Below, piece after piece: positions 3 to 46,028 of a DNA stretch of 64,000 nucleotides (its first letter is position 1; each line of letters opens with the position of its first letter). A program made the translations under genes and the position numbers. Source of the DNA: Alphaproteobacteria bacterium (lineage in GTDB: Bacteria; Pseudomonadota; Alphaproteobacteria; CAAHEQ01; UBA3637); assembly GCA_017559525.1 (NCBI GenBank), contig JAFYRI010000007.1:73132-137131 (forward strand), written 5' to 3'. Under the pieces are notes generated by a model. The model was not told the DNA's origin and did no database searches. It worked only from the letters and a program-made list of their open reading frames with translations.

Positions 3-1781
3 TTATTTTCCTTTGAACTGTGCTGTATAAAGGGCGTGATATGCCCCATTCTTAGACATTAATTCGTCATGTGAACCAGTTTCAACGATTTCACCTTCAT
101 TAATAACAACAATCTTATCCACATTTTGAATTGTGCTAAGGCGATGAGCGATTACAAAAACAGTTCTGGATTCCATTAAATTATCAATGGCTTGTTGAAC
201 AACTGCTTCTGATTTATTATCTAATGCAGAGGTTGCCTCATCCAAAATTAAAATAGGGGCATTCTTTAAAAAAGCTCTTGCGATAGCGATACGTTGTTTT
301 TGACCGCCAGATAATAAAGTTCCTCGTTCTCCAATATTTGTATCTAATCCGTCTTCTAATTCAGCAATAAAGTCTTCTAAGCAGGCTGATTTTATGGCTG
401 TTTTTATTTCATCTTCAGTCGCATCAAATTTTCCAAGCATTAAGTTGTCTCGAATTGTACCAGAGAAAAGGAAGTTGTCTTGAAAAACAACACCAATATG
501 CTGACGTAATGATTGCAAAGATAAATCCCGAATATCATGGCCATCTATTTTAATATGTCCCGATCCAACTTCATAAAAACGAGGAATAAGACTGATGATT
601 GTTGATTTTCCACCTCCGGAATTTCCAACAAAAGCAATCTTTTGGCCCTTTTTTACTGTTAAGTTGATATTTTTTAAAACGGGAGTATCTTCTTTATAAG
701 CAAAGTTAACGTTTTCGAAAACGATATCTTTTTTTAATGCTTCTAAGGTAATTGGATTTTTTTTGTCTTTTATTGTTAATGGCATATCTAGAATTTCAAA
801 AACACGATCAATTGCCATGAAGGATAATTGAACTTGATTGAAGTTTTTACCAATATTTTTAATTGGCGTATACAACATAAGCATAGCAACCATAAAGGAC
901 ACAAAATCACCAGTTGTAATAATTTTATTTGTAATTAAATAACTGCCATACCAAATAGCAGCAGCCATTCCAATAGAAATAATAATGTGCATCATTGGCG
1001 ATAACCAAGCGGTTCGCTGTGTATTTTTGATGCTCAGTTTGAATCCCTGTGTTAGTAAATTAAAGAATTTCTTTTTTTGATATTCTTGTAAATTATAAGA
1101 AGCAATTGTTTTTGCGCCTGCATAGGTTTCGGTATAAGTTGTTAAAGATGAACCGCCAATTTCAACGGATTTTTTTACGATATCTTTAATTTTTTTCCGA
1201 ATCTTTGTCAGAGGATATAAAGCAAAACCCAAAACAAGGATGGCAATGATGGCAAGTTGCCAAGATGTATAAAGTAAAACACCAACTAAAGCAATAGATG
1301 AAAATAAACGTGTTGTAAAAACCTTAACATTTGACAGTAATCCCGAACATGCTGTTGCAGCATCTCCTGAAAAACGTGTTAGAACCATACCAGAAGTTGT
1401 CATATCCAAATAGCTTTGATCGATAATTAATAACTTACGATATAATTTTTTTTGTAATTCTTGAGTGATTTTGCCCCCTGTCCAAGCATTTAAGTATGCA
1501 GATGTATATTCTAAAATAGCTTGAATAATTGTGAAGAATACAACAAATATAGGAATAATGTATAATGGTAAATTAAAGGGGGTCGCTCCACCTTGTTCCA
1601 TGATAACAGTATCCATAAATGGTTTTAGAGCTAATGCGATAACAGCATCTAATGAACCAATGGGAATCGTAATCAATGTTGCCAATAGAGCACGAAACCA
1701 AAAAGGTTTGATAAATGGCCACATACGTTTATAGTTTTTCACAAATTGAGATTTAGGGAGTTTAGATGTGTTTTTAGACAT
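3..1781 (-). CDS. ABC transporter, fused permease/ATPase (MsbA-like lipid/multidrug exporter)
   Basis: 592-aa ORF with hydrophobic N-terminal half; Walker A GNSGGGKST, ABC signature LSGGQKQRIAIARA, Walker B ILILDEATSALD; TAA stop at 3-5, so complete. Confidence 0.9.
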   Translation of the reverse strand: MSKNTSKLPKSQFVKNYKRMWPFIKPFWFRALLATLITIPIGSLDAVIALALKPFMDTVIMEQGGATPFNLPLYIIPIFVVFFTIIQAILEYTSAYLNAWTGGKITQELQKKLYRKLLIIDQSYLDMTTSGMVLTRFSGDAATACSGLLSNVKVFTTRLFSSIALVGVLLYTSWQLAIIAILVLGFALYPLTKIRKKIKDIVKKSVEIGGSSLTTYTETYAGAKTIASYNLQEYQKKKFFNLLTQGFKLSIKNTQRTAWLSPMMHIIISIGMAAAIWYGSYLITNKIITTGDFVSFMVAMLMLYTPIKNIGKNFNQVQLSFMAIDRVFEILDMPLTIKDKKNPITLEALKKDIVFENVNFAYKEDTPVLKNINLTVKKGQKIAFVGNSGGGKSTIISLIPRFYEVGSGHIKIDGHDIRDLSLQSLRQHIGVVFQDNFLFSGTIRDNLMLGKFDATEDEIKTAIKSACLEDFIAELEDGLDTNIGERGTLLSGGQKQRIAIARAFLKNAPILILDEATSALDNKSEAVVQQAIDNLMESRTVFVIAHRLSTIQNVDKIVVINEGEIVETGSHDELMSKNGAYHALYTAQFKGK

Positions 1782-33676: not shown

Positions 33677-33702
33677 AATAAATGTATCACATAGGAGGGA
33701 AA

Positions 33703-34323
33703 ATGGCAAACAACAGATTATTTCATTGTGTTAAACGGGCGAAAGCATTAAAAACAGTTCCGGCTTTGATTGAATTGGGTGTAAACCCACACGAAACGGA
33801 TGATAAAGGGCGAACATTATTACATTATGCCGCAGAACAAGGGCATCTTCCATTGGTTGATTATTTAGTTAATACTGTTAAAATTCATCCAAATATTCAA
33901 GATCATGATGGTCAAACAGCTATGCATATGGCTGCAACCCAGCATCGCGTTGCTATTGTAAAGACGTTGTCTGCCGCAGGTGGAGATGTTAATGCAACAG
34001 ATAAAGTTGGTTTGAGACCGTTACATATGGCCGCAATTTATGGTCATATTACGATGGCTTCGACGTTGGTTGATAAGGGAGCAGATATTTTTGCAACATC
34101 TTATGCTGCAGGAGGGCATGGTAATTTAACAGCGCGTGAGGCAGCATTGTTAGCTAATCAGCCTAAAATGGCTCAGGTTTTGGGAGCAATAGAACGTATT
34201 GCAAAATTAAAATTAGCGAAACAACAAGAAGCTTCTCAATCTCTTCCGCCAGAACCCGTTTTTATTTGTTCACATGATGATGTTAATACACCAATGAAAA
34301 CAAAAGAAAATCAAAAATCATAA
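33703..34323 (+). CDS. ankyrin repeat protein
   Basis: ORF trimmed to the ATG after GGAGGG; canonical repeats GRTLLHYAAEQGHLPLVDYLV, GQTAMHMAATQHRVAIVKTL, GLRPLHMAAIYGHITMASTLVDKGADI. Confidence 0.88.
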   Translation: MANNRLFHCVKRAKALKTVPALIELGVNPHETDDKGRTLLHYAAEQGHLPLVDYLVNTVKIHPNIQDHDGQTAMHMAATQHRVAIVKTLSAAGGDVNATDKVGLRPLHMAAIYGHITMASTLVDKGADIFATSYAAGGHGNLTAREAALLANQPKMAQVLGAIERIAKLKLAKQQEASQSLPPEPVFICSHDDVNTPMKTKENQKS

Positions 34324-36902: not shown

Positions 36903-37559
36903 ATGAAATTAACAGACTTAATGCCAGATATCTATCAGTTAATTCCTTGTGGCTATGAAGTTCTTCAAAATGATTCGTATGATAAAATATTGGCAGATGA
37001 AGTATCATCAGCCTCTAAAAATAAAACACCTGTTTTGTATCAAGTCAGTGGTGTGCCTGGGTCAGGTAAGAGTGCTTTTTGTAAACACTTTTTAAAAAAG
37101 AATCCGGATTTTACTTATGTCAGTTTTGATAAAATTATGGAATCAATGCCAGAATATCAACAAGATGTTCATAAAAAAGGATCTGCCTTAGCGTTTGCAC
37201 TTTGGGAAAAACCAGCTAGAGTTATTGGATATGAATTATTGAAACGGTTATTGGATCAAGGTGCAAATGTTTTATTGGAACATTCTGGCGTAAATTCATC
37301 ACATTTGCAATTACATAAAAATGTTAAAAAATATGGATATCAAACAAAGGTAACGTTTTTGATGTGTGATACGGATATTGCAATTGAGCGCGCTAAAAAA
37401 CGTGAAAAATTGACAGGTCGCCATACACCAGATATGATGATATGTGAACGTGCATCCTTGATGCAACAGTATGCTACTAAATACAGTGAAATTACAGATG
37501 ATATTCAATTTTATGATGCTTCTGGAGACAAGTTTCAACCAATGGAGTTTAAATATTAA
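36903..37559 (+). CDS. P-loop kinase (zeta-toxin/AAA_33-like)
   Basis: Walker A GVPGSGKSAF near residue 50, ~218 aa; GGAGG SD. Confidence 0.55.
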   Translation: MKLTDLMPDIYQLIPCGYEVLQNDSYDKILADEVSSASKNKTPVLYQVSGVPGSGKSAFCKHFLKKNPDFTYVSFDKIMESMPEYQQDVHKKGSALAFALWEKPARVIGYELLKRLLDQGANVLLEHSGVNSSHLQLHKNVKKYGYQTKVTFLMCDTDIAIERAKKREKLTGRHTPDMMICERASLMQQYATKYSEITDDIQFYDASGDKFQPMEFKY

Positions 37560-37746: not shown

Positions 37747-38194
37747 AATCTGCAACCATATTGCAACCAAAAAGATGAGAAGTAATATAGCTTGCTTTTC
37801 GTTTTGTAAAATATAGGTTGTTGAGATATTGCTTAATAAGATTAAAAAGAACTTGCGCAACTAATTTAAATATGTATAATGTACATCGTGATATGTATTT
37901 ATTTGCATATTGTTTCTGTCGTGTAAGCATTTGTTTTTGTATATTGAAAGATAGCAATCTTATGGAAATAAATAATAAATTTCTTTTTCTTTTTTTTAAA
38001 GGCTGTTGGTTTGAAGATGATAAAATATAAGTGTCAAAATGAATGTACTCAAGCTCAGTTATCAAGAAAATCTAATTTGTTTGATATCGCTGCTATATTG
38101 TATATAGAACTTATTGAATTATTGTCTGATAAGAATATATTATTTTTAAATAAAGAAAAGTTATCTCTTTTGTTACAGAATAAGGGGATTTTGA

Positions 38195-39130
38195 ATGCCT
38201 AAAGTATCAATCATTATTCCAGTTTATAATGTAGAAAAATATTTGTCTCGTTGTTTGGATTCAGTTTTAAATCAAACATTCAATGAGTTTGAAGCTATTT
38301 GTGTGAATGATGGTAGTACGGATAGTTGTGGTGATATTTTGGATGAATATGCTAAAAAGGATAATCGGATAAAAATCATTACCCAGAAAAATCAGGGAGT
38401 ATCTGTGGCACGTAATACTGGCATTCAATCGGCTATAGGAGATTATGTTGCCTTTTTGGATAGTGACGATGAATTGGCACCATTGTTTTTAGAAAAGATG
38501 TATAACGCTATTATTAAAAGCAATGCTGACGTTGTATGGTGTGATTATTTCCATGGGGAAAAAGTACCGCAATGGTGTATGACAAAGAGTGAAGTTGAAG
38601 CATATTTTTGCCCGTTTGATAAGTTTATTTTGCAAGAAGCAGATATGGAAATGGTTATTTGGAATAAATTATGGCGTCGAGAGCTGGTTTTATCTCATCC
38701 ATTTGTTGGGGGATTAGTTCATGGTGAAGATGTTGTTTTTTTACATCAAATGCTATATGATACGAAAAAGATAGCTCATGTTTCTCAATCGCTTTATTTT
38801 TATCGGGAAAGAGAAAACTCTATTGTGCATAGCTCATTTACTAAAAAAGTTGTGGATGATAATATTTTTGTGGTTAAAACATTACATAATTATTTTGTTG
38901 ATAAGCTAATGAAAGAAAAAACATACAATCGATTGTACAGTCGCTTGAGTAAACGATTGTTTAAATTCTGTGTATTGGAGCCTAAACGTAAAGATAAAGC
39001 TAATGTGGATAAATGGTATATCCATACTCGCCAGTTGTTAAAGGATTTAAAACAACAAGGTATCTATCAGCCACAATACTTGACATTAAAAAATCGTATT
39101 AAATCTTGGGTGTTTTTGAAGGGAAAATAA
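38195..39130 (+). CDS. family-2 glycosyltransferase
   Basis: VSIIIPVYNVEKYLSRCLDSVLNQTF..FEAICVNDGSTD...FLDSDD (DxD). Confidence 0.88.
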   Translation: MPKVSIIIPVYNVEKYLSRCLDSVLNQTFNEFEAICVNDGSTDSCGDILDEYAKKDNRIKIITQKNQGVSVARNTGIQSAIGDYVAFLDSDDELAPLFLEKMYNAIIKSNADVVWCDYFHGEKVPQWCMTKSEVEAYFCPFDKFILQEADMEMVIWNKLWRRELVLSHPFVGGLVHGEDVVFLHQMLYDTKKIAHVSQSLYFYRERENSIVHSSFTKKVVDDNIFVVKTLHNYFVDKLMKEKTYNRLYSRLSKRLFKFCVLEPKRKDKANVDKWYIHTRQLLKDLKQQGIYQPQYLTLKNRIKSWVFLKGK

Positions 39131-40237
39131 ATGTCCGAAATATCTATTATTATTCCAAATTATAATACAGAAAAATATCTGAAACGCTGTTTGGATAGTT
39201 TAATCGGCCAAACTTTCAATGATATTGAAATCATCGTTATAGATGATGGGTCAAAAGATAAATCTGTTGATATTATTAAAAAATATGTACAACAAGATTC
39301 TCGTGTAAAATTAATACAACAACAAAATTCTGGACCAGCTAAAGCCAGAAATCAAGGTTTAGAAAATGCCACTGGAAAATACTTAATGTTTTGTGATTCG
39401 GATGATTGGTATGAGCCGAATATGTGTCAAGAAATGTATGACACTATTGAAAAGCAAAAAGTTGATGTTGTTTGCTGCCATAATTTTTTTGATTGGGAAG
39501 AAAATTTAGATAATCAAGAAAAAGAAGAACGTTTGGTTGAAAAATATTATAATCCTAAAAAATCTGGTAAATATGTTCTTTCAGATAAAATAATACTTTC
39601 TACCAATGTTTTGCTTTGGAATAAAATTTGGCGTCGAGATTTGGTGGAAGAATTTCATATTCGCTTTCCACAAGGTCATGAACATGATGATGATGCATTT
39701 TGGTATATGTATGCAATGATAAGTAAAAAAATTTTCTATCTGCCAAAGCCTTTTTATCATTATTTTTTGCGTTCAGGTTCTATCATGAGTACACAAGCAA
39801 ATAAACAGCCTAAAAACAGAATGGATAGAGTTATTATTTCAGAATATGTTTTGAATTTTTTAATCAAAAATAATTTAAAAAAGACAAAAGCGCATTTGAT
39901 GGCTGGAATTTTTAAAAATCAATTAAGATGTGTTTGTCCTTTTTTTAATTTTGATGAACTGAAAGAATTGTGCCAAAATACCAATAAAACCATAAAAAAA
40001 GAATTGGGTATATCCGAAACAGTTGTTTGTTTTGAAACAGATAAAAAACGTTTTATTTTAAAGGATAAATCATTGATTGTGTTGATTTATGAATGGATAT
40101 GGTATAGACTGTGTATTTGGTTTTGGCATTTTTCAAAAACACCAAAAGGAAAGCAACAATATTCTTTTTATATGCACAGAATAAATAGAAATAATGCATA
40201 TTTGAAACAAAGAAAGGAAAACAAAAATGACGCCTAA
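39131..40237 (+). CDS. family-2 glycosyltransferase
   Basis: ISIIIPNYNTEKYLKRCLDSLIGQTF...IIVIDDGSKD...FCDSDD; abuts the upstream stop. Confidence 0.88.
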   Translation: MSEISIIIPNYNTEKYLKRCLDSLIGQTFNDIEIIVIDDGSKDKSVDIIKKYVQQDSRVKLIQQQNSGPAKARNQGLENATGKYLMFCDSDDWYEPNMCQEMYDTIEKQKVDVVCCHNFFDWEENLDNQEKEERLVEKYYNPKKSGKYVLSDKIILSTNVLLWNKIWRRDLVEEFHIRFPQGHEHDDDAFWYMYAMISKKIFYLPKPFYHYFLRSGSIMSTQANKQPKNRMDRVIISEYVLNFLIKNNLKKTKAHLMAGIFKNQLRCVCPFFNFDELKELCQNTNKTIKKELGISETVVCFETDKKRFILKDKSLIVLIYEWIWYRLCIWFWHFSKTPKGKQQYSFYMHRINRNNAYLKQRKENKNDA

Positions 40238-41192
40238 AATTTCCGTTATTATTCCATGTTATAACGTTGAAAACTTTTTAAAAGAATGTTTAGACAGCGT
40301 TTTTAAACAAACCTTTCAAGATTTTGAAGTTATTTGCATTGATGATTGTTCCTCGGATAAAACGAAAGAAATCTTGGAACAATATGTTCATAACATTCAA
40401 GTGATTCATAATCCAGAAAATAAAGGTCAAGCAGAATCGCGAAATATTGGTATTAATCAAGCTAAAGGGGATTTTATCTACTTTTTGGATTCAGATGATA
40501 CAATCAGCGAGAACTGTTTGGAAATTTTATACAGTAAAATGTTGGAAGATAATTCAGATATGGTGATGGGGGCTATACAGGCCTATCCCCAAAATTCACA
40601 AGATTTATTTTGTGTAAATCATAGTAACCATTTAAACGATTGGTTATTTTTCCCATCTTTTGCAAAGAAAAAAATCACACCAGAAAATGTTTTAGAATGT
40701 TATCATAAATTACACTGTTGTCCAGTTAATAATTTATATAAAAAAAGTTTTTTATTAAATAATGATATTTATTTTATCCATCAAAAATGTTTTCATGAAG
40801 ATAATGGTTTTTGGTTCAAGATACTTGCTTGTAATCCAATTATTTCAGGAATTGATGAAAAAACCTATTTTTATCGTGTCAGAAATGGTTCTACCTCTGA
40901 TAAAATGGAATCAGATAAAAAAGCTCATGAAAAAAATTTAAAACTATCTTTAGAAGATGCTTTAACCTTTGTTAAAAAAAGAAAACATATGGAATTATCC
41001 GATTTTATTTATCAAGAAATCCATAGCAAAGGAAGACGGCACTGGTTGTCTTTCAGATGGTCTAAGAATGAAAAATATTTAACAGTCTTTTTAATTCCGA
41101 TTTTCAGATTAAAATTTAGCGTGAAAAAGCAACGTGGGACATTAAAAATAATGGGAATTCCTTTTTATAAATGGAGAAAGAAAAATGGTTAA
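40227..41192 (+). CDS. family-2 glycosyltransferase
   Basis: ISVIIPCYNVENFLKECLDSVFKQTF...ICIDDCSSD...FLDSDD; 11-nt overlap with the upstream gene. Confidence 0.88.
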   Translation: MTPKISVIIPCYNVENFLKECLDSVFKQTFQDFEVICIDDCSSDKTKEILEQYVHNIQVIHNPENKGQAESRNIGINQAKGDFIYFLDSDDTISENCLEILYSKMLEDNSDMVMGAIQAYPQNSQDLFCVNHSNHLNDWLFFPSFAKKKITPENVLECYHKLHCCPVNNLYKKSFLLNNDIYFIHQKCFHEDNGFWFKILACNPIISGIDEKTYFYRVRNGSTSDKMESDKKAHEKNLKLSLEDALTFVKKRKHMELSDFIYQEIHSKGRRHWLSFRWSKNEKYLTVFLIPIFRLKFSVKKQRGTLKIMGIPFYKWRKKNG

Positions 41193-42861
41193 AATTTCAG
41201 TTATAATGCCGGTTTACAATACAGAAAAAGGATATCTGACCGAAGCAATCGAATCAATTTTAAATCAAACCTTTCAAGACTTTGAATTTTTGATTATTGA
41301 CGACGGTTCCACGGAACCACATGTCAAAGAAACGATTTTATCGTACAATGATGATAGAATTAAATATTTTTATAAAGACAATTCTGGTGTTGCTGATACA
41401 CTTAATTTTGGTTTATCAAAAGCAAGCGGAGAATATATTGCCCGAATGGATGCGGATGATATTTCTTTGCCGGAACGGTTTGAAAAACAAGCCTCATTTT
41501 TAGACTGTCATCCGGATATTTCTCTTGTGGGATCATGGATTGAATTTTTCCCAGACAAAAAAGTATGGAAGACAATGAAACAACCAAAATTGTTTGACTT
41601 TTTAAAGGGAACACAATTGGCACATCCTACTGTTATGTTCCGACATGATGATTTTAAAAAATATGATTTTAAATATAATCCTGAATATCCTGCTGAAGAC
41701 TATGAGTTATGGACACGGGTTATTAGTGTTTTAAAAGTTGATAATATACAAGAAGTTCTGTTAAAATATCGGGTTTCCGAAAAACAAGTAACAGCAAGTA
41801 AAGCTTGTCGGATTGCATCAAGTAACAATAAGATTCAACAAAAATTATTAAATTTTTTAACATCTGATATTTTTGAACAACAAAAACTGTTAAACTTGGG
41901 AAGCCCTTGTAAAAGAAAAGTTAAATTTTTAGGTATTCCTGTTGCGAAAATAAAGAGCACAGCGTCTCAAACAAAAATTTATCTGTTTGGAAAGATACCC
42001 TTGTTAAAAATTAATGCCGATAATGTATCCCCGTTTTCAAGTGCTTTATTAGAAGATGATTTGATTTTACAAGAATTACTTCCTATGCAAAATTTTTCAT
42101 ATATGCCAAACAGCGGAAATATTGGTGATATGTTAATCGCAACAGCAACAATGGATTGGTTTGATAAAAATAACCTGAAATGGCATCGTACAACAGAAGA
42201 TGAATTTCCGGAAAATTTTGTTTACGGTGGCGGTGGTGCATGGCTAAAAGAATGGATTGGATATTTAAACCATGTTATGGATAAAATGAAACGTGCCAAG
42301 AAAGTGGTTATTTTGCCGTCTTCATTCAATGAAGTTCCCGAATTAATCAGTATATTAGATGAACGTTTTGTTGTTTTTTGCCGGGAAAAAAAATCATATG
42401 ATTATTTAATGAGCCAAAACACAAAAGCAAAAATCATATTGAATCATGACATGGCTTTTCGATTGAGTGGTAAATTCAAGAAAAATTTAACACCACCAAC
42501 TAAAAACTTAAAAAAGATGAGTAAAGTTTTGGACGAAAAGGTTGCTACTTTACCTCAAAATGTTCGTTTTTTTAGAAAAGATTCAGAGGCTGTTGGAAAT
42601 AAACAAACGGATTTAGATTTATCTGATACGTTGGGATGGTTCAGCCCATATGAAGACAAAAAAAATATTGACTTTGCATCAAATACAATGTTAAAAGTTA
42701 TTTCAAAGTTTGAAAAAGTAGAAACGGATAGATTACATGTAGGGATTGCATCAGCTTTATTAGGGAAAGAGGTCTATTTGCATGATAATTCGTATGGAAA
42801 AGTAAGCGGTGTTTTTAATCAAACACTTCATGTTATACCAAATGTTCAGCTTAAAAAATAA
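41185..42861 (+). CDS. GT2 glycosyltransferase fused to a polysaccharide pyruvyl-transferase-like domain
   Basis: N-terminal ISVIMPVYNTEKGYL...LIIDDGST...RMDADD; C-terminal NSGNIGDMLIATAT... and TDRLHVGIASALLGKEVYL resemble the PS-pyruvyl-transferase family. Confidence 0.7.
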   Translation: MVKISVIMPVYNTEKGYLTEAIESILNQTFQDFEFLIIDDGSTEPHVKETILSYNDDRIKYFYKDNSGVADTLNFGLSKASGEYIARMDADDISLPERFEKQASFLDCHPDISLVGSWIEFFPDKKVWKTMKQPKLFDFLKGTQLAHPTVMFRHDDFKKYDFKYNPEYPAEDYELWTRVISVLKVDNIQEVLLKYRVSEKQVTASKACRIASSNNKIQQKLLNFLTSDIFEQQKLLNLGSPCKRKVKFLGIPVAKIKSTASQTKIYLFGKIPLLKINADNVSPFSSALLEDDLILQELLPMQNFSYMPNSGNIGDMLIATATMDWFDKNNLKWHRTTEDEFPENFVYGGGGAWLKEWIGYLNHVMDKMKRAKKVVILPSSFNEVPELISILDERFVVFCREKKSYDYLMSQNTKAKIILNHDMAFRLSGKFKKNLTPPTKNLKKMSKVLDEKVATLPQNVRFFRKDSEAVGNKQTDLDLSDTLGWFSPYEDKKNIDFASNTMLKVISKFEKVETDRLHVGIASALLGKEVYLHDNSYGKVSGVFNQTLHVIPNVQLKK

Positions 42862-42872
42862 AGGAAATAAAA

Positions 42873-44579
42873 ATGATTTTAACATATCATAATATCGGAA
42901 AAGGAAATAATAAAACCTATATTACTTTGGAAAGTTTTCAAAGACAAATACAAGATTTAAAAGACGCTAATTTTGAAGTCGTAAAATTTGAAGACTATAA
43001 TCTCCATAATGCAAAACATGTTATATTGACTTTTGATGATGGTCGAAAGAATATTTTGGATATTTTGCCAATTTTACAGAAAAATAAATGGCCTTTTTAT
43101 GTATTTTTAGTTGGAGATTTACTCGGTTCTTCTGATGAATTTTTATCAGAAGCAGATTTTGAAAAAATTACTAAAGCAGGGGGTATTTTAGGATGGCATA
43201 CAAAATCACATCCAGATCTGACAACTTTAAACAGTCGAAAAATTAGACAAGAATTGCAAAATCCTTATGGGTTTAAATATTTGGCATATCCATATTGGAA
43301 AAGCAATGAAAAAGTTGTAAAAATAGCAAAAAAAATGGGATATACCTACGCCAGAAGTGGTAATGGCTTCGCACATCAAAAATTTGGTTGTTTTTCTTTG
43401 GATTCACAATTTATTCAAGAGCATACCAATGTGAAATATATTAACAATAGAATTGTAAAATTTTTGGATTGTTATATTCCTGTTAAAACGTGTAATTTTA
43501 AATGTCATTATTGTTATATTACTCAAAATAAATGGTGGGGTGAAAAATTACCGGAATTCAAATATTCACCGGAGTATATTTCAAAGGCATTGTCTAAGGA
43601 ACGAATGGGTGGTATTTGTTTGGTTAATTTATGTGGTGGCGGAGAAACACTCTTACCTCCGGAAATGACAGACATCGTGCGTTGTTTATTGCAGGAAGGT
43701 CATTATGTTATGATTGTAACTAACTGTACTGTAACAAAACGTATCGATGAAATTTTATCTTTGGATAAAGAACTATTAAAAAGATTATTTTTCAAATGTT
43801 CTTTTCAATATCTTGAATTAAAACGAACAAAATTGATGGATCGTTTCTTTGATAATATTCGTAAAATAAAATCCAGTCCAGCCTCATTTACGGTGGAATT
43901 AACTGTTGTAGATGAATTGGTTCCCCATATTCAAGATATCAAAGATACTTGTATGAAGGAATTGGGTGCTTTATGCCATTTAACAATTGCCAGAGATGAA
44001 ACAAAACCAACCATTCCCAGATTATCTGATTATTCAGAAGACGAATTTGCAAAAATTTGGAATGACTTTGATTCAGAAATGTTTCGCTTTAAGTTACCAT
44101 TATTTGAAAAAAAGCGACATGAATTTTGTTATGCAGGGTGTTGGTCTTATCTTGTTAATTTTGAAAACGGAGATCTAAGTCCCTGTTATGGATGTTCTAA
44201 AATACAAAATATTTTTGAAGATGTAAGTAGTCCAATAAAATCATGTCCAGTGGGATGTCATTGTCCAAATCCGCATTGTTGGAATAACCATGCATTCTTG
44301 TGTTTTGGGGATATTATTGGTTTTAAAGCTCCAACTTTTGCCCAAATTCGAGATCGAGTCTGTAGTGATGGCAGTCATTGGTTAAAACCAGAATTTTTAG
44401 ATATCTTCAACCAAAGATTGGATGAAAATAATCCTCATCTTTCTGAAAAGGAAATGAGACAAATTGAAAAGGATTACAATAAGAAACCTTTTAAATATTA
44501 TAAATATAAATTCTTATCAAAAATTACTTTAGGTAAAATAAGAAAAAAATACAAGAAAAAATTAAAGAATATTAAATAG
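42873..44579 (+). CDS. CE4 (NodB) polysaccharide deacetylase fused to a radical SAM/SPASM-like domain
   Basis: LTFDDGRKN and GWHTKSHPDL (NodB motifs); CNFKCHYCY (CX3CX2C, nt 43491-43514), CGGGETLL; C-terminal Cys cluster CYAGC...SPCYGC...CPVGCHCPNPHC. Confidence 0.75.
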   Translation: MILTYHNIGKGNNKTYITLESFQRQIQDLKDANFEVVKFEDYNLHNAKHVILTFDDGRKNILDILPILQKNKWPFYVFLVGDLLGSSDEFLSEADFEKITKAGGILGWHTKSHPDLTTLNSRKIRQELQNPYGFKYLAYPYWKSNEKVVKIAKKMGYTYARSGNGFAHQKFGCFSLDSQFIQEHTNVKYINNRIVKFLDCYIPVKTCNFKCHYCYITQNKWWGEKLPEFKYSPEYISKALSKERMGGICLVNLCGGGETLLPPEMTDIVRCLLQEGHYVMIVTNCTVTKRIDEILSLDKELLKRLFFKCSFQYLELKRTKLMDRFFDNIRKIKSSPASFTVELTVVDELVPHIQDIKDTCMKELGALCHLTIARDETKPTIPRLSDYSEDEFAKIWNDFDSEMFRFKLPLFEKKRHEFCYAGCWSYLVNFENGDLSPCYGCSKIQNIFEDVSSPIKSCPVGCHCPNPHCWNNHAFLCFGDIIGFKAPTFAQIRDRVCSDGSHWLKPEFLDIFNQRLDENNPHLSEKEMRQIEKDYNKKPFKYYKYKFLSKITLGKIRKKYKKKLKNIK

Positions 44580-44647
44580 GTGTATTTGTATTGACTTAGA
44601 GAGAAAAAGAGGCCGAAAATGAAAAAATAAAAATTAATTTTGCCGAT

Positions 44648-45685
44648 ATGTCTACTGAATTAAAAAATGAAGAAAACTTATATTCAAAAATACTTAAAAT
44701 ACTAAAAAATCGCTATGATATTGAAATTTCTGACAAGCCTGATTTTCTATTTTTTTCATGTTTTGGTGCTGAAAATCTCAAGTATTATGATTGTGTAAAA
44801 ATATTCATTACTGGAGAGAATGTTCTTCCTAATTTTAATCTTTGTGATTATGCTTGCGCTTTTGATGATATATCGTTTGGGGATAGATATTTCCGTAAAA
44901 GATATTATTTCCCAGAAAAAGCTATCCAAGACAGAAGTTTTATAACACCAGATATGGCAAATCGTAAATTCTGTAATTTTATCTATTCAAATAGCAATAA
45001 TGGTGAAGGAAGTATTCTTCGACAGGAATTTTGTAAAAAGCTAATGGAATATAAACATGTTGATTGCCCAGGCAAAATACTCAATAATATGTCTGCAGAT
45101 GATTTGGAGCCTAGAAATGGTGATTGGATAAATAGCAAAATAAAATTTTTGAATAAATATAAGTTTACAATCGCATTTGAAAATTCATCATCTAATGGTT
45201 ATACAACGGAAAAATTATACCATCCTATTCTTGCCGGCTCGGTTCCTATATATTGGGGGAATCCAGATGTATTGCGAGATTTTAATCCAAAAGCTTTTAT
45301 TAATGCGAATGATTTTAATAATGATTTTGATGCTATTGTTGAGTATGTAAAAGAACTTGACTCAAATGATGAAAAATATCTTGCCATGTTACAAGAAAGT
45401 CCAATGCGGGAAGATTTTGATTTTGATCAAGATAAAAAATTTGCTCAATGGATTTATCATATCATTGAAAAGGGTAATAAACCTTTTGTGAAAGATCCAT
45501 TGAATTTTGATATGTCTCGTAGATTAAAAATAGATTTAGATCTTTCTTATGAACAAATAAAAAACAAACAAAAATATTCTTCTTTTAAAAAACGTCTATT
45601 TTCCATTGACAAAACATCAAAGAAAAATAAAATAATTGTGAGATTTTTAGGATTAAAATTATCATTAAAAAAGAAGCATGCTTAA
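44648..45685 (+). CDS. GT10 alpha-1,3/4-fucosyltransferase (start apparently displaced by a frameshift, see findings)
   Basis: IFITGENVLPNFNLCDYACAFDDISFGDRYFR and FTIAFENSSSNGYTTEKLYHPILAGSVPIYWG match the Helicobacter FutA-type motifs. Confidence 0.88.
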   Translation: MSTELKNEENLYSKILKILKNRYDIEISDKPDFLFFSCFGAENLKYYDCVKIFITGENVLPNFNLCDYACAFDDISFGDRYFRKRYYFPEKAIQDRSFITPDMANRKFCNFIYSNSNNGEGSILRQEFCKKLMEYKHVDCPGKILNNMSADDLEPRNGDWINSKIKFLNKYKFTIAFENSSSNGYTTEKLYHPILAGSVPIYWGNPDVLRDFNPKAFINANDFNNDFDAIVEYVKELDSNDEKYLAMLQESPMREDFDFDQDKKFAQWIYHIIEKGNKPFVKDPLNFDMSRRLKIDLDLSYEQIKNKQKYSSFKKRLFSIDKTSKKNKIIVRFLGLKLSLKKKHA

Positions 45686-45700
45686 ATTATAACGTATAAC

Positions 45701-45720
45701 AGGGGCGGTTTCCCGCCCCT
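45701..45720. terminator. bidirectional terminator hairpin
   Basis: aggggcgg-tttc-ccgcccct between convergent genes. Confidence 0.8.
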
Positions 45721-45725
45721 TTGAT

Positions 45726-46028
45726 TTACTCTTTGGGATATTTATTTTTAATCTCGGTAATTTTTTCTTGCCACAAATTTGTGCCATTGACTTTATCCCA
45801 ATAAATCATATCCAATTGATCGGGAATACTTGGATATTCCGCAATACGTTTATCCACATACGTTGGTTCCGGTGCAGCAGGTTCTTCGCCTTTAAAGTAT
45901 CTCTTATTATCATAACCATAAACAATTTCTCTGTCTGTTTTTAATGTTAACCCCAATGATTTTGCAACTTTTTCACTAGGTGTTGAACATCCAATAGTTC
46001 CGTCTGGTAGTAATTCATAATATGTCAT
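45726..46028 (-). CDS. small phage-type protein coupled to the tail-fibre gene (possible fibre assembly/chaperone)
   Basis: 100 aa; its start overlaps the tail-fibre stop by 1 nt (TAATG). Confidence 0.55.
   Translation of the reverse strand: MTYYELLPDGTIGCSTPSEKVAKSLGLTLKTDREIVYGYDNKRYFKGEEPAAPEPTYVDKRIAEYPSIPDQLDMIYWDKVNGTNLWQEKITEIKNKYPKE

Follow-up and report, generated by a model that had tools for sequence, protein, structure and literature searches.

What kind of protein is encoded by a gene that, inside a glycan operon, appears to join a polysaccharide deacetylase to a radical SAM enzyme, and what would such a protein do? We analysed this gene in its context, a stretch of 64,000 nucleotides from an Alphaproteobacteria bacterium (assembly GCA_017559525.1, contig JAFYRI010000007.1), henceforth termed the window. 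An earlier note had described the gene product as a NodB/CE4-type de-N-acetylase fused to a radical SAM enzyme. This observation was borne out as a whole, since a single open reading frame begins with ATG and runs for 568 amino acids without any internal stop, and both Pfam domains score above their thresholds. Polysacc_deac_1 (PF01522) was found on residues 46-159 with 64.3 bits against a gathering cut-off of 23.1 (E 1.3e-17), and Radical_SAM (PF04055) on residues 202-297 with 38.4 bits against 29.5 (E 1.8e-9). The start codon is located 11 nt past the stop of the preceding gene, with AGGA 8-9 nt upstream, and the gene is present as one copy without internal stops in the 1.35-Mb genome (Table 1).

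Table 1. Positions of the fusion gene, its parts and its neighbours in the window.
Feature	Position	Strand	Basis
Whole gene: deacetylase-radical SAM fusion, 568 aa plus stop codon	42873..44579	+	Continuous ORF, both Pfam domains
CE4/NodB2-type (PgaB, IcaB, PplD-like) de-N-acetylase domain, aa 1-190	42873..43442	+	PF01522, fold matches
TFDDG motif, aa 53-57	43029..43043	+	Sequence; conservation
HTKSH motif, aa 109-113, two His as putative metal ligands	43197..43211	+	Both His kept in 26/26 fusions
Inter-domain joint, aa 180-200, ..NVKYINNRIVKFLDCY..	43410..43472	+	Alignment A1, pLDDT 85-94
Radical SAM partial barrel, aa 196-415	43458..44117	+	PF04055, invariant motifs, fold matches
CX3CX2C, aa 207-214	43491-43514	+	Invariant in 99/99 relatives
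GGE, aa 255-258	43635-43646	+	G257, E258 invariant in 99/99
Predicted twitch-type auxiliary domain, aa 416-510	44118..44402	+	C419-X13-G433-X4-C438 hairpin and C464-X4-C469
Lys-rich helical tail, aa 521-568, ..KYYKYKFLSKITLGKIRKKYKKKLKNIK	44433..44576	+	Sequence; model helices at 525-567
Three GT2 glycosyltransferase genes, operon head	38195..41192	+	PF00535, E 1e-42 to 1e-44
GT2 fused to WbbZ-like pyruvyltransferase, upstream partner	41185..42861	+	PF00535, PF04230
Pyruvyltransferase domain of upstream partner	~42037-42858	+	WbbZ match
GT10 alpha-1,3-fucosyltransferase gene, downstream	44648..45685	+	FucT_N, Glyco_transf_10

An error of assembly or sequencing could have joined two ordinary neighbouring genes at the joint. 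The source, a metagenome-type assembly of 20 contigs, would be compatible with such an artefact, and a read-level look gave, from one unrelated run, two pieces (43542-43788 and 43954-44193) that both lie inside the radical SAM half and leave the joint uncovered. However, the identical 568-aa protein is recorded on 5 contigs, and 25 more full-length deacetylase-first fusions align straight through a conserved joint. Moreover, the domain order is repeated in locus L077, where GT2, pyruvyltransferase, deacetylase and radical SAM domains form a single chain of 1519 aa, and the AlphaFold model (mean pLDDT 94.4, pTM 0.87) is confident through the joint, with pLDDT 85-94 over residues 160-200. We regard an artefact as extremely improbable. 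The radical SAM part starts at IVKF, the same as near the N-terminus of unfused relatives (P0002, P0003). Whereas the earlier note could not place a fusion of this kind, it can be placed because it is recurrent: both domains were found in 27 of the 120 homologues listed, one of which has them in reverse order, and in some loci the deacetylase is a separate gene. In public records the two-domain homologues are labelled ‘polysaccharide deacetylase family protein’.

Structure prediction, which had been proposed as a check, yielded a NodB2-type CE4 fold for the first half and a radical SAM barrel for the second. All motifs that had been named, i.e. TFDDG, WHTKSH (residues 108-113), CNFKCHYCY and CGGGETLL, are present in the sequence, and H6 of the N-terminal MILTYH has to be added to the list, as this CE4 subtype has its catalytic His there. 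The putative catalytic pair consists of H6 and D55, with D56, H109 and H113 as probable metal ligands, plus R161. In a structural alignment these six residues correspond to H105, D167, D168, H223, H227 and R302 of PplD, the residue roles being those given for PplD in PMC8807736. PplD was also the top fold match (VIA-align; Z 23.9, rmsd 2.5, 193 residues aligned, model 1-193 on chain 100-320), followed by BC0361 (Z 23.4), IcaB (Z 22.0) and PgaB (Z 21.1). The best nine matches for model residues 1-193 all belong to the NodB2 group (Z 20.6-23.9), and sequence identity to the PplD/IcaB/PgaB-type matches amounts to 20-27%. Measured against the NodB topology classes described in PMC10967932, the domain has the permuted barrel with the catalytic His on the N-terminal strand that is typical of NodB2, but not the extracytoplasmic location, as strand 1 lies at residues 2-5, in the MILTYH start. 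Neither a signal peptide nor a helix precedes the domain, and its fusion partner depends on SAM and reductant from the cytoplasm; the CE4 half therefore probably acts inside the cell. The Lys-rich tail of the protein may serve for peripheral membrane attachment.

It has to be considered whether the CE4 domain is a pseudoenzyme, that is, a sugar-binding or recruiting module that presents the glycan to the radical SAM half. CE4 pseudoenzymes exist, and one of them, BA3943, is among the fold matches. In addition, the first Asp of TFDD is replaced in three of the 26 fusions aligned (the window and 25 others), namely by Ala in P0016, Asn in P0022 and His in P0028, so that D55 is kept in 23/26, next to D56 in 25/26. 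The window copy, however, retains H6, D55, D56, H109, H113 and R161, and H6 and both His ligands are each kept in 26/26 fusions. Furthermore, the equivalent His of PplD is proposed in PMC8807736 to serve as base as well as acid, so that an enzyme without the Asp could still be active. A pseudoenzyme thus appears unlikely. Judged from their sequences, both halves of the window protein retain the residues required by their families.

In the radical SAM half, Cys 207/211/214 of CNFKCHYCY and G257/E258 of CGGGETLL are invariant in all 99 aligned relatives. The C-terminal cluster of at least eight Cys that had been noticed comprises ten Cys within residues 419-497 (419, 423, 438, 441, 458, 462, 464, 469, 477 and 497). 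Only C419, C438, C464 and C469 are each kept in 99/99 relatives, as are H468 and H473, which flank the second Cys pair; the remaining six Cys are kept in 1 to 58 of the 99 rows, C462 in 23 of the 82 rows that have a residue. The C-X13-G-X4-C spacing of the first pair fits the hairpin motif CX9-15GX4C. As described in PMC9477430, a SPASM domain contains seven or eight conserved Cys and two auxiliary clusters, whereas in a twitch domain conservation extends to three or four Cys, for one extra cluster. Since only four of the ten C-terminal Cys are conserved, the pattern points to a twitch-type domain with one predicted auxiliary cluster and not to SPASM, for which the fusion protein has no Pfam match (PF13186) at E<=0.01. 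Hence, of the SPASM/twitch-like domain proposed earlier, the auxiliary Cys domain and its twitch-like nature stand, whereas SPASM does not.

The closest solved fold to residues 193-492 is BlsE (PDB 7vob; Z 16.5, rmsd 3.8, 280 residues aligned), and further matches include MoaA (Z 14.3), a viperin-like enzyme (Z 14.0) and DesII (Z 13.6; all VIA-align). As the barrel matches span Z 12-16.5 and the lead of BlsE over MoaA, viperin, anSME, SkfB and DesII is only about 2 Z units, these are generic structural matches. SpeY occurs at rank 50 of the Foldseek list (E 4.6e-4). BtrN is counted among the twitch radical SAM enzymes that act on sugars; there was no BtrN row among the matches. No named family for this half emerged from NCBIfam, the PDB sequence search or the ESM Atlas; the best full-length NCBIfam match, STM4011 (E 3.8e-4), is far under its cut-off. 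The NCBIfam BlsE model (TIGR04466) scored 15.5 bits against a cut-off of 400, and therefore the window protein is not a BlsE orthologue. At E<=1e-3 the radical SAM family counts 670 cluster representatives, of which 278 remain at E<=1e-30.

The gene indeed resides inside a glycan operon, together with three GT2 genes, the GT2-pyruvyltransferase gene and the GT10 fucosyltransferase gene. The pyruvyltransferase domain of the upstream partner matched WbbZ (6x1l) across its whole length (E 6.1e-29), and the NxGD, Rxxx(S/T) and H motifs, which are invariant in alignment A3, are aligned. According to PMC10629545, WbbZ is a biochemically proven terminal pyruvyltransferase of the Klebsiella O1 antigen. 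A complex prediction for residues 1-530 of the fusion protein and the upstream pyruvyltransferase domain (score 0.00, mark 0.32) argues neither for nor against binding.

To place the window operon within the family, we compared 79 loci, i.e. the window and 78 loci fetched when 80 of 201 tblastn-confirmed genome loci were taken; the clustering of neighbours was computed without the anchor genes. The loci span Bacteroidota, Bacillota, Alphaproteobacteria, Verrucomicrobiota, Melainabacteria, Elusimicrobiota, Spirochaetota and others; cultured carriers include Segatella copri AF10-17 (L073), Bacteroides bouchesdurhonensis (L015) and Odoribacter lunatus (L033). A PS_pyruv_trans pyruvyltransferase is fused or adjacent in 64/79 loci (fused in 2, adjacent in 62), lies within three genes in 7 and farther away in 1. 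Fusions of radical SAM and PS_pyruv_trans domains, in both orders, make up 23 of the 83 long family representatives. The radical SAM half thus belongs to a large uncharacterised family with PS_pyruv_trans pyruvyltransferases as its constant companion. In the seven loci in which no pyruvyltransferase was found, the neighbouring genes encode acyltransferase, FkbM methyltransferase, GDSL esterase, GT4 or sulfatase-like enzymes, and other fusion partners of the family are FkbM, GT-D, GDSL, GT2 and class I methyltransferases. Given these seven loci and the other fusion partners, the radical SAM reaction may proceed without any need for a pyruvyl group.

These neighbours also bear on the idea that the radical SAM half acts not on a sugar but as an activase or protein modifier, maturing the pyruvyltransferase or another enzyme. 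Stand-alone homologues carry JGI names such as ‘pyruvate formate-lyase activating enzyme’ and ‘organic radical activating enzyme’, modification of peptides or proteins is common among SPASM/twitch enzymes, of which the fold matches include anSME, SuiB, SkfB and EpeE, and two loci have sulfatase-family genes as neighbours. Yet the NCBIfam activase models stay far under their cut-offs (NrdG2, 30 bits versus 131), and the recurrent neighbour clusters of the 79 loci included neither a glycyl-radical enzyme nor a precursor peptide. Moreover, the partners are many unrelated small-group transferases, and BlsE, the best fold match, decarboxylates a sugar acid. It is very unlikely that the radical SAM half is an activase or protein modifier.

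A different picture emerged for the deacetylase, which is missing from 66/79 loci. In the 13 loci that have it, it is fused in 8 and encoded by a separate gene in 5. Twelve of these 13 loci contain a GT2-pyruvyltransferase partner, and in the thirteenth the partner is cut by the contig end, while a deacetylase is absent from all 49 loci whose pyruvyltransferase stands alone. Each deacetylase-radical SAM fusion is preceded by a GT2-pyruvyltransferase gene, unless it is already fused to it. The deacetylase therefore joins the pyruvyltransferase-radical SAM pair only where the pyruvyltransferase is fused to a GT2. Since 66/79 loci lack the deacetylase and a pyruvyltransferase is fused or adjacent in most, the deacetylase seems to be an accessory to a core made up of pyruvyltransferase and radical SAM enzyme.

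The earlier note had favoured another logic, in which deacetylation is followed by radical modification of the freed amine or a neighbouring carbon. If the amine is the direct radical target, a DesII-like deamination would be one example, and the pyruvyltransferase would be one further tailoring enzyme of the locus. In a DesII-like case, hydrogen abstraction beside the amino carbon would be followed by loss of ammonia to give a deoxy-keto sugar. This reading can draw on the fact that the two domains are found fused in both orders, and are still fused after a domain swap, on the five loci with a separate deacetylase gene, and on DesII being among the fold matches, albeit as one of many folds that score alike. 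In addition, a second NodB-fold family, UNK283, occurs in 19 further loci and is adjacent in 15. Its fold matches are HP0310 (Z 14.4) and ArnD (Z 13.7); profile-profile comparison with the deacetylase fusion family revealed no relation (probability 0.4%), the fold being the sole link. As UNK283 has an N-terminal transmembrane helix, it may act across the membrane, which counts against a freed amine as the radical target. More importantly, 47/79 loci contain neither NodB-type protein, and yet the active-site and auxiliary residues are invariant in 99/99 members; nor was the deacetylase seen without a GT2-pyruvyltransferase, apart from the one truncated locus. UNK283 speaks for some link between deacetylation and the radical step, and the order deacetylate-then-modify may yet apply, but the evidence from the family as a whole, in which the pyruvyltransferase and not the deacetylase is the regular partner, points elsewhere. 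We consider a freed amine as the direct target doubtful.

As judged from sequence comparison, the window gene itself is a chimera of a deacetylase domain of the fusion clade and a radical SAM domain that is locally related and otherwise occurs unfused. Its separate fusion origin rests on SH-aLRT values of 98-99 and on identities of 82% versus 39-47%. When the window and the 25 other fusions were forced into one clade, the cost was 61 log-likelihood units, and the AU test did not reject this topology at 0.05 (p-AU 0.0697). No match at E<=1e-10 was obtained in 60 other genomes searched for relatives in the same family, 5 of them from the same genus. A literature search retrieved no paper on a radical SAM enzyme paired with a polysaccharide deacetylase or with a pyruvyltransferase, and a search on twitch enzymes or epimerases in the context of capsular polysaccharides gave nothing relevant.

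Taken together, it is reasonable to propose, as the somewhat favoured reading, that the fusion protein is a cytoplasmic, probably membrane-peripheral enzyme with two catalytic halves that forms a four-domain glycan-tailoring unit with the product of the upstream gene. The unit would be composed of GT2, WbbZ-type pyruvyltransferase, CE4 de-N-acetylase and twitch radical SAM enzyme, presumably acting in this order. The GT2 domain would add a sugar, likely a HexNAc, onto a glycan that is probably lipid-linked, and the pyruvyltransferase domain would place a PEP-derived three-carbon acid on the added sugar or its neighbour. The CE4 domain would take off an N-acetyl group. The radical SAM domain would cleave SAM at the CX3CX2C cluster, abstract a hydrogen from the sugar and then remodel the residue that bears the PEP-derived group, while the single auxiliary cluster may handle an electron or hold the substrate. 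This remodelling would most likely be an oxidation or elimination of the BtrN/DesII type, followed in likelihood by a PolH-like C-C coupling to the PEP-derived unit and a BlsE-like decarboxylation. More tentatively, and with a probability that we rate as low, the pyruvyltransferase-radical SAM pair could make an undescribed glycan decoration in which the PEP-derived three-carbon acid is radically remodelled after its transfer. The outcome could be an octosyl-acid-like bicyclic residue through C-C bonding to the sugar, a lactyl ether together with a keto sugar through opening of the ketal ring, or an acetal through decarboxylation. If so, the variant with the deacetylase would place a free amine beside the remodelled group, so that surface glycans of gut bacteria from many phyla would bear a zwitterionic cap.

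Sugar-tailoring radical SAM enzymes are known from antibiotic pathways, where their substrates are small molecules. The present family, in contrast, is an uncharacterised twitch-type family located in surface-glycan loci of gut and other anaerobic bacteria of many phyla, and it is tied to pyruvyltransferases through adjacency and fusion. This implies that the decoration of surface glycans includes a chemical step to which structure studies have assigned no gene. In Klebsiella O antigens, terminal pyruvate caps serve as epitopes, as reported in PMC10629545, and radical remodelling of such caps could therefore matter for antigenic variety, phage receptors and recognition by the gut host. With their compact set of domains in fixed order, the window protein and the L077 four-domain chain would be suited to reconstituting the chemistry.

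A comparison with known systems shows what is shared and what is particular. With PplD, which according to PMC8807736 removes the N-acetyl group from GlcNAc of a lipid-built surface glycan in Streptococcus pyogenes, and with the PNAG deacetylases PgaB and IcaB, the CE4 half has in common a catalytic His near the N-terminus, a metal site of Asp-His-His and an Arg at a late position. The catalytic domain of PplD, however, is described there as extracellular, behind a transmembrane helix, whereas in the window protein the CE4 domain opens the chain at residue 1, with neither signal peptide nor helix before it, and is joined to a radical SAM enzyme. WbbZ compares with the partner gene only, the C-terminal domain of which shares its sequence and all three motifs. 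As portrayed in PMC10629545, WbbZ is a stand-alone protein encoded beside a polymerase that needs neither a radical SAM enzyme nor a deacetylase; in the window, on the other hand, the pyruvyltransferase forms one protein with a GT2, and the deacetylase-radical SAM gene comes next. BlsE, the closest fold to the radical SAM half, acts on a carboxylated sugar, cytosylglucuronic acid (PMC3715490), but identity is 12% and its substrate is a free nucleoside and not a glycan. BtrN, DesII and SpeY likewise combine a radical SAM barrel with a short C-terminal Cys domain that accommodates one extra cluster, although the CX13GX4C ... CX4C arrangement with two invariant His is particular to the window family. 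Finally, PolH/NikJ and the enolpyruvyl transferase PolA/NikO of the polyoxin and nikkomycin pathways resemble the proposed unit in pathway logic only: a three-carbon acid loaded onto a sugar hydroxyl by a PEP-dependent transferase becomes the substrate group of a radical SAM enzyme. PolH acts on 3'-enolpyruvyl-UMP, which is cyclised to octosyl acid phosphate (PMC5365060). One cluster is reported for PolH in PMC5365060, as opposed to the four extra conserved Cys of the window family, and the PEP transferase of the window is a PS_pyruv_trans protein that is closest to a ketal-forming enzyme.

The deacetylase and the radical SAM enzyme are encoded in one continuous reading frame (see table). All the motifs quoted in the earlier note were found at their positions, both Pfam domains score above their cut-offs and the frame is open, which confirms the observation of a fusion. 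The gene starts 11 nt past the stop of the preceding gene, with an AGGA 8-9 nt 5' of its start. The identical 568-aa protein has been recorded from five contigs, and 25 further full-length fusions, likewise with the deacetylase first, can be aligned through the conserved joint ..KYIN[DN][KR]IVK[FY]... A 1519-aa chain from Planctomycetota (locus L077) likewise has the deacetylase followed by the radical SAM domain. The AlphaFold model, built with 99 relatives, has a mean pLDDT of 94.4 and a pTM of 0.87; over the joint region (aa 160-200) pLDDT is 85-94. No named NCBIfam family was found for either half, and the top full-length NCBIfam alignment of the radical SAM half, to the STM4011 radical SAM subfamily (E 3.8e-4), lies far below the cut-off.

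Coordinates of features in the window, in the fusion protein and in two related loci
Feature	Position	Strand	Remarks
Deacetylase-radical SAM fusion ORF	window 42873-44579	+	568 codons, ATG start, zero internal stops
Polysacc_deac_1	fusion protein aa 46-159		Pfam E 1.3e-17, 64.3 bits (cut-off 23.1)
Radical_SAM	fusion protein aa 202-297		Pfam E 1.8e-9, 38.4 bits (cut-off 29.5)
Two ORFs between fucosyltransferase and next GT2	window 45726-47041	-	
Lys-rich stretch, fucosyltransferase C-terminus	window 45600-45685		
Lys-rich stretch, GT2 C-terminus	window 41100-41192		
Lys-rich stretch, GT2-pyruvyltransferase joint	window, about 41900-41950		
2106-aa ORF	window 50060-56380	+	sole Pfam match a short M48 peptidase stretch, aa 82-132
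Ankyrin-repeat protein	window 33682-34323	+	just upstream of glycan island
Zeta-toxin-family kinase	window 36903-37559	+	just upstream of glycan island
GT2, PS_pyruv_trans, Polysacc_deac_1 and Radical_SAM in one chain	L077 protein aa 376-503, 702-965, 1030-1147 and 1197-1338		
UNK283 example (P0269)	L033 7108-7989		

The operon contains three GT2 genes, a GT2-PS_pyruv_trans gene directly upstream of the fusion gene and a GT10 fucosyltransferase gene downstream. The G+C content of this glycan island (window 38001-52000) is 29-31%, against 33-38% in most of the remaining window. The source genome (1.35 Mb, 20 contigs, 98.55% complete) has a single copy of the fusion gene, and a search of 60 further genomes from its family gave no match at E<=1e-10. 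The gene is therefore an accessory trait, probably transferred, and its absence from those searches suggests that the island is an acquired, variable locus. Among other features of the window, the 337-aa product of the minus-strand pair has an N-terminus like phage tail/tail-fibre families (phrog_1640, E 2.1e-21) and the 100-aa product has a match in phrog_9114. In L002 and L003 the radical SAM gene is likewise followed by small minus-strand ORFs of this sort, and in L019, L059, L060 and L062 by Mtd_N-type ORFs. Several glycan enzymes of the operon share a Lys-rich stretch of the type FS.K...K(I/V)...G(I/L)K at an end or a joint, and the tail of the fusion protein carries a degenerate form of it.

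The closest structural match of the deacetylase half in VIA-align is PplD (Z 23.9, rmsd 2.5 over 193 residues; model aa 1-193 on PplD chain 100-320), followed by BC0361 (Z 23.4), a B. anthracis deacetylase (23.3), BA0330 (23.1), IcaB (22.0) and PgaB (21.1); Foldseek is in agreement. These matches are the 'NodB2' enzymes, with termini swapped relative to classical CE4 (PMC10967932, PMC8807736). For PplD, H105 is reported as the catalytic His, D168, H223 and H227 as the zinc ligands, and D167 as the water-holding Asp, itself held by R302 (PMC8807736). By structural register, H6, D55, D56, H109 and H113 of the window protein correspond to H105, D167, D168, H223 and H227, and in the model R161 is probably the counterpart of R302. 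H6, H109 and H113 are invariant in all 26 aligned fusions, D56 is kept in 25 and D55 in 23 of them, and R161 in at least 90%. With its catalytic and metal residues kept, the domain looks catalytically competent. Unlike the PplD deacetylase domain, which is reported to be extracellular (PMC8807736), that of the window protein starts at residue 1 without a signal or membrane helix; because it is fused to a SAM-dependent enzyme, we infer that it must work in the cytoplasm.

In the radical SAM half, C207, C211, C214, G257 and E258 are invariant in all 99 aligned relatives. The SPASM-like C-terminus of the earlier note was not borne out: only four of the ten Cys within aa 419-497 (C419, C438, C464 and C469) are conserved in 99/99, along with G433, H468 and H473, and the fusion protein gave no Pfam SPASM match at E<=0.01. 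The other six Cys are kept in 1 to 58 of the 99 rows (C462 in 23 of the 82 rows with a residue). Twitch domains are described as having one extra cluster, SPASM domains as having seven or eight Cys (PMC9477430). As four conserved Cys lie C-terminal to the barrel, the alignment fits a twitch with one extra cluster rather than SPASM. The C-X13-G-X4-C spacing is compatible with the hairpin motif of twitch/SPASM domains. The nearest solved fold in VIA-align is that of BlsE (Z 16.5, rmsd 3.8, 280 residues, 12% identity), which decarboxylates a glucuronic acid nucleoside by radical chemistry (PMC3715490). MoaA (Z 14.3), viperin-like enzymes (14.0) and anSME, SkfB and DesII (13.6) follow, so that the lead of BlsE in the model comparison is small; against the BlsE family model the half scores 15.5 bits, with a cut-off of 400.

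A word-indexed search found 1097 homologues. Both Pfam domains occur in 27 of the 120 listed, the window's own counted; in P0036 the order is reversed, with the radical SAM domain first and the deacetylase last. In the databases these homologues go by no other name than 'polysaccharide deacetylase family protein'. When the radical SAM half was used for an exhaustive search, the cluster representatives numbered 670 at E<=1e-3, 439 at E<=1e-10 and 278 at E<=1e-30. Among the best 150, 83 were scanned with Pfam (those of at least 416 aa, minus P0024, P0035, P0256, P0257 and P0265). PS_pyruv_trans is fused to the radical SAM domain in 23 of these 83, twice together with GT2 and once in the arrangement radical SAM-ferredoxin-FrhB-PS_pyruv_trans. 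Other partners are FkbM methyltransferase (1), GT-D (1), GDSL esterase (2), GT2 (1) and class I methyltransferase (2), and 53 have no second Pfam domain. P0187 (1305 aa) joins radical SAM, 2x[4Fe-4S] ferredoxin, an FrhB/FdhB-like flavoprotein and PS_pyruv_trans in a single chain, tying the family to a further Fe-S domain family (FrhB/FdhB).

For a neighbourhood census, 80 of 201 related loci confirmed in a genome scan were retained, from many phyla and mainly gut or anaerobic organisms. L014 and L020 gave no radical SAM gene, and the other 78 plus the window make up the 79 loci. ORFs were called in each locus and domains marked with purpose-built HMMs; Pfam confirmed representatives of the neighbour clusters. 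The pyruvyltransferase domain is fused to the radical SAM domain in 2 loci and encoded next to it in 62; in 7 loci it lies within three genes, in 1 it is farther off, and in 7 it was not found. Loci that lack it either lie on a very short contig or have as neighbour an acyltransferase, FkbM methyltransferase, GDSL esterase, GT4 or sulfatase-family enzyme. In L039, L052, L072 and L077 the radical SAM gene occurs as two side-by-side paralogues, the second 37-39% identical to the window's domain.

The C-domain of the upstream window protein matches WbbZ (PDB 6x1l) over its whole length (E 6.1e-29). In vitro, WbbZ is reported to put a PEP-derived 3,4-ketal on the terminal galactose of the Klebsiella O1 antigen, and NxGD, Rxxx(S/T) and one His are given as motifs common to its family (PMC10629545). 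The upstream protein has them as N312-G314-D315, R400-S404 and H518, invariant in 18 GT2-pyruvyltransferase partners, and is a credible pyruvyltransferase; a stand-alone partner from another locus resembles yeast Pvg1p instead (E 4e-18).

Of the 79 loci, 13 have the PF01522-type deacetylase, 8 as a fusion and 5 as a separate gene, the latter 38-41% identical to the window protein's N-domain. In 12 of these loci the pyruvyltransferase partner is fused to a GT2; in the 13th it is cut by the contig end. No such deacetylase occurs in the 49 loci with a stand-alone pyruvyltransferase, and 10 loci with GT2-pyruvyltransferase are without it. In L077 the domain order of the single chain equals that of the window's two adjacent genes. 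By this distribution, the deacetylase is a lineage-restricted third or fourth member of a pyruvyltransferase-radical SAM core.

A second neighbour family, UNK283 (220-310 aa, no Pfam match), occurs in 19 of the 79 loci, in 15 of them adjoining the radical SAM gene, and never together with a PF01522-type deacetylase. The 18 relatives of the example in the table are in L013, L021, L039, L040, L042, L048, L051, L052, L056, L061, L064-L067, L071-L073 and L076. Its model (pLDDT 90.7) is a barrel of the NodB/CE4 superfamily, with fold matches to HP0310 (Z 14.4), a mycobacterial deacetylase (14.0) and the lipid-sugar deformylase ArnD (13.7), in which Foldseek agrees. The family has the motifs HxSxDD, WLKFGFH, RLH and FTHE, and HxSxDD, a His and THE are conserved; given an N-terminal membrane helix, it may act outside the cytoplasm. 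Because NodB-fold proteins thus occur with the radical SAM gene in 32 of the 79 loci through two unrelated sequence families, the link between deacetylase and radical chemistry proposed in the earlier note is, with the modelled fold of UNK283, kept alive.

A tree of 72 radical SAM domains places the 25 other deacetylase fusions together in a single group (SH-aLRT 99). The window domain is nested among 12 unfused or pyruvyltransferase-fused relatives (SH-aLRT 98), nearest to P0002 (82% identity) and P0003, and is only 39-47% identical to the fusion group. The deacetylase domain of the window protein is 44-67% identical to those of that group and lies inside their best-supported subgroup (SH-aLRT 100, 19 rows). 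The rest of the locus is like L003, where GT2 and GT2-pyruvyltransferase genes occur with an unfused radical SAM gene, a gene of fucosyltransferase type and one small minus-strand ORF. A single origin of all fusions costs 61 log-likelihood units and is not quite rejected by the AU test (p 0.0697). The window gene is a chimera, most simply read as a radical SAM gene already present at the locus that gained a deacetylase domain at its conserved IVKF start.

Both halves retain intact catalytic residues, the domain order is fixed and the unit is linked to a pyruvyltransferase. The interpretation in the earlier note is partly supported. The fusion protein ends in a Lys-rich tail (aa 521-568), helical in the AlphaFold model, and the substrate of the unit would be a lipid-linked glycan on the inner side of the membrane. 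GT2 would attach a sugar and the pyruvyltransferase a PEP-derived acid, after which the CE4 domain would liberate an amine and the radical SAM domain take a hydrogen from the sugar. By analogy with twitch dehydrogenases and DesII-type eliminations, in which an auxiliary cluster is used or tolerated, a dehydrogenation or elimination could follow, which would give the free amine a role. Another precedent would be PolH, reported to couple a sugar radical to a PEP-derived enolpyruvyl group (PMC5365060), and a third a BlsE-type decarboxylation. Our literature search found no paper on the pairing of a radical SAM enzyme with a deacetylase or a pyruvyltransferase. The gene is of interest mainly as a pointer to a pyruvyltransferase-radical SAM module of surface-glycan loci that is widespread and unstudied; the fusion protein itself combines two known kinds of enzyme, a CE4 deacetylase and a twitch radical SAM enzyme.
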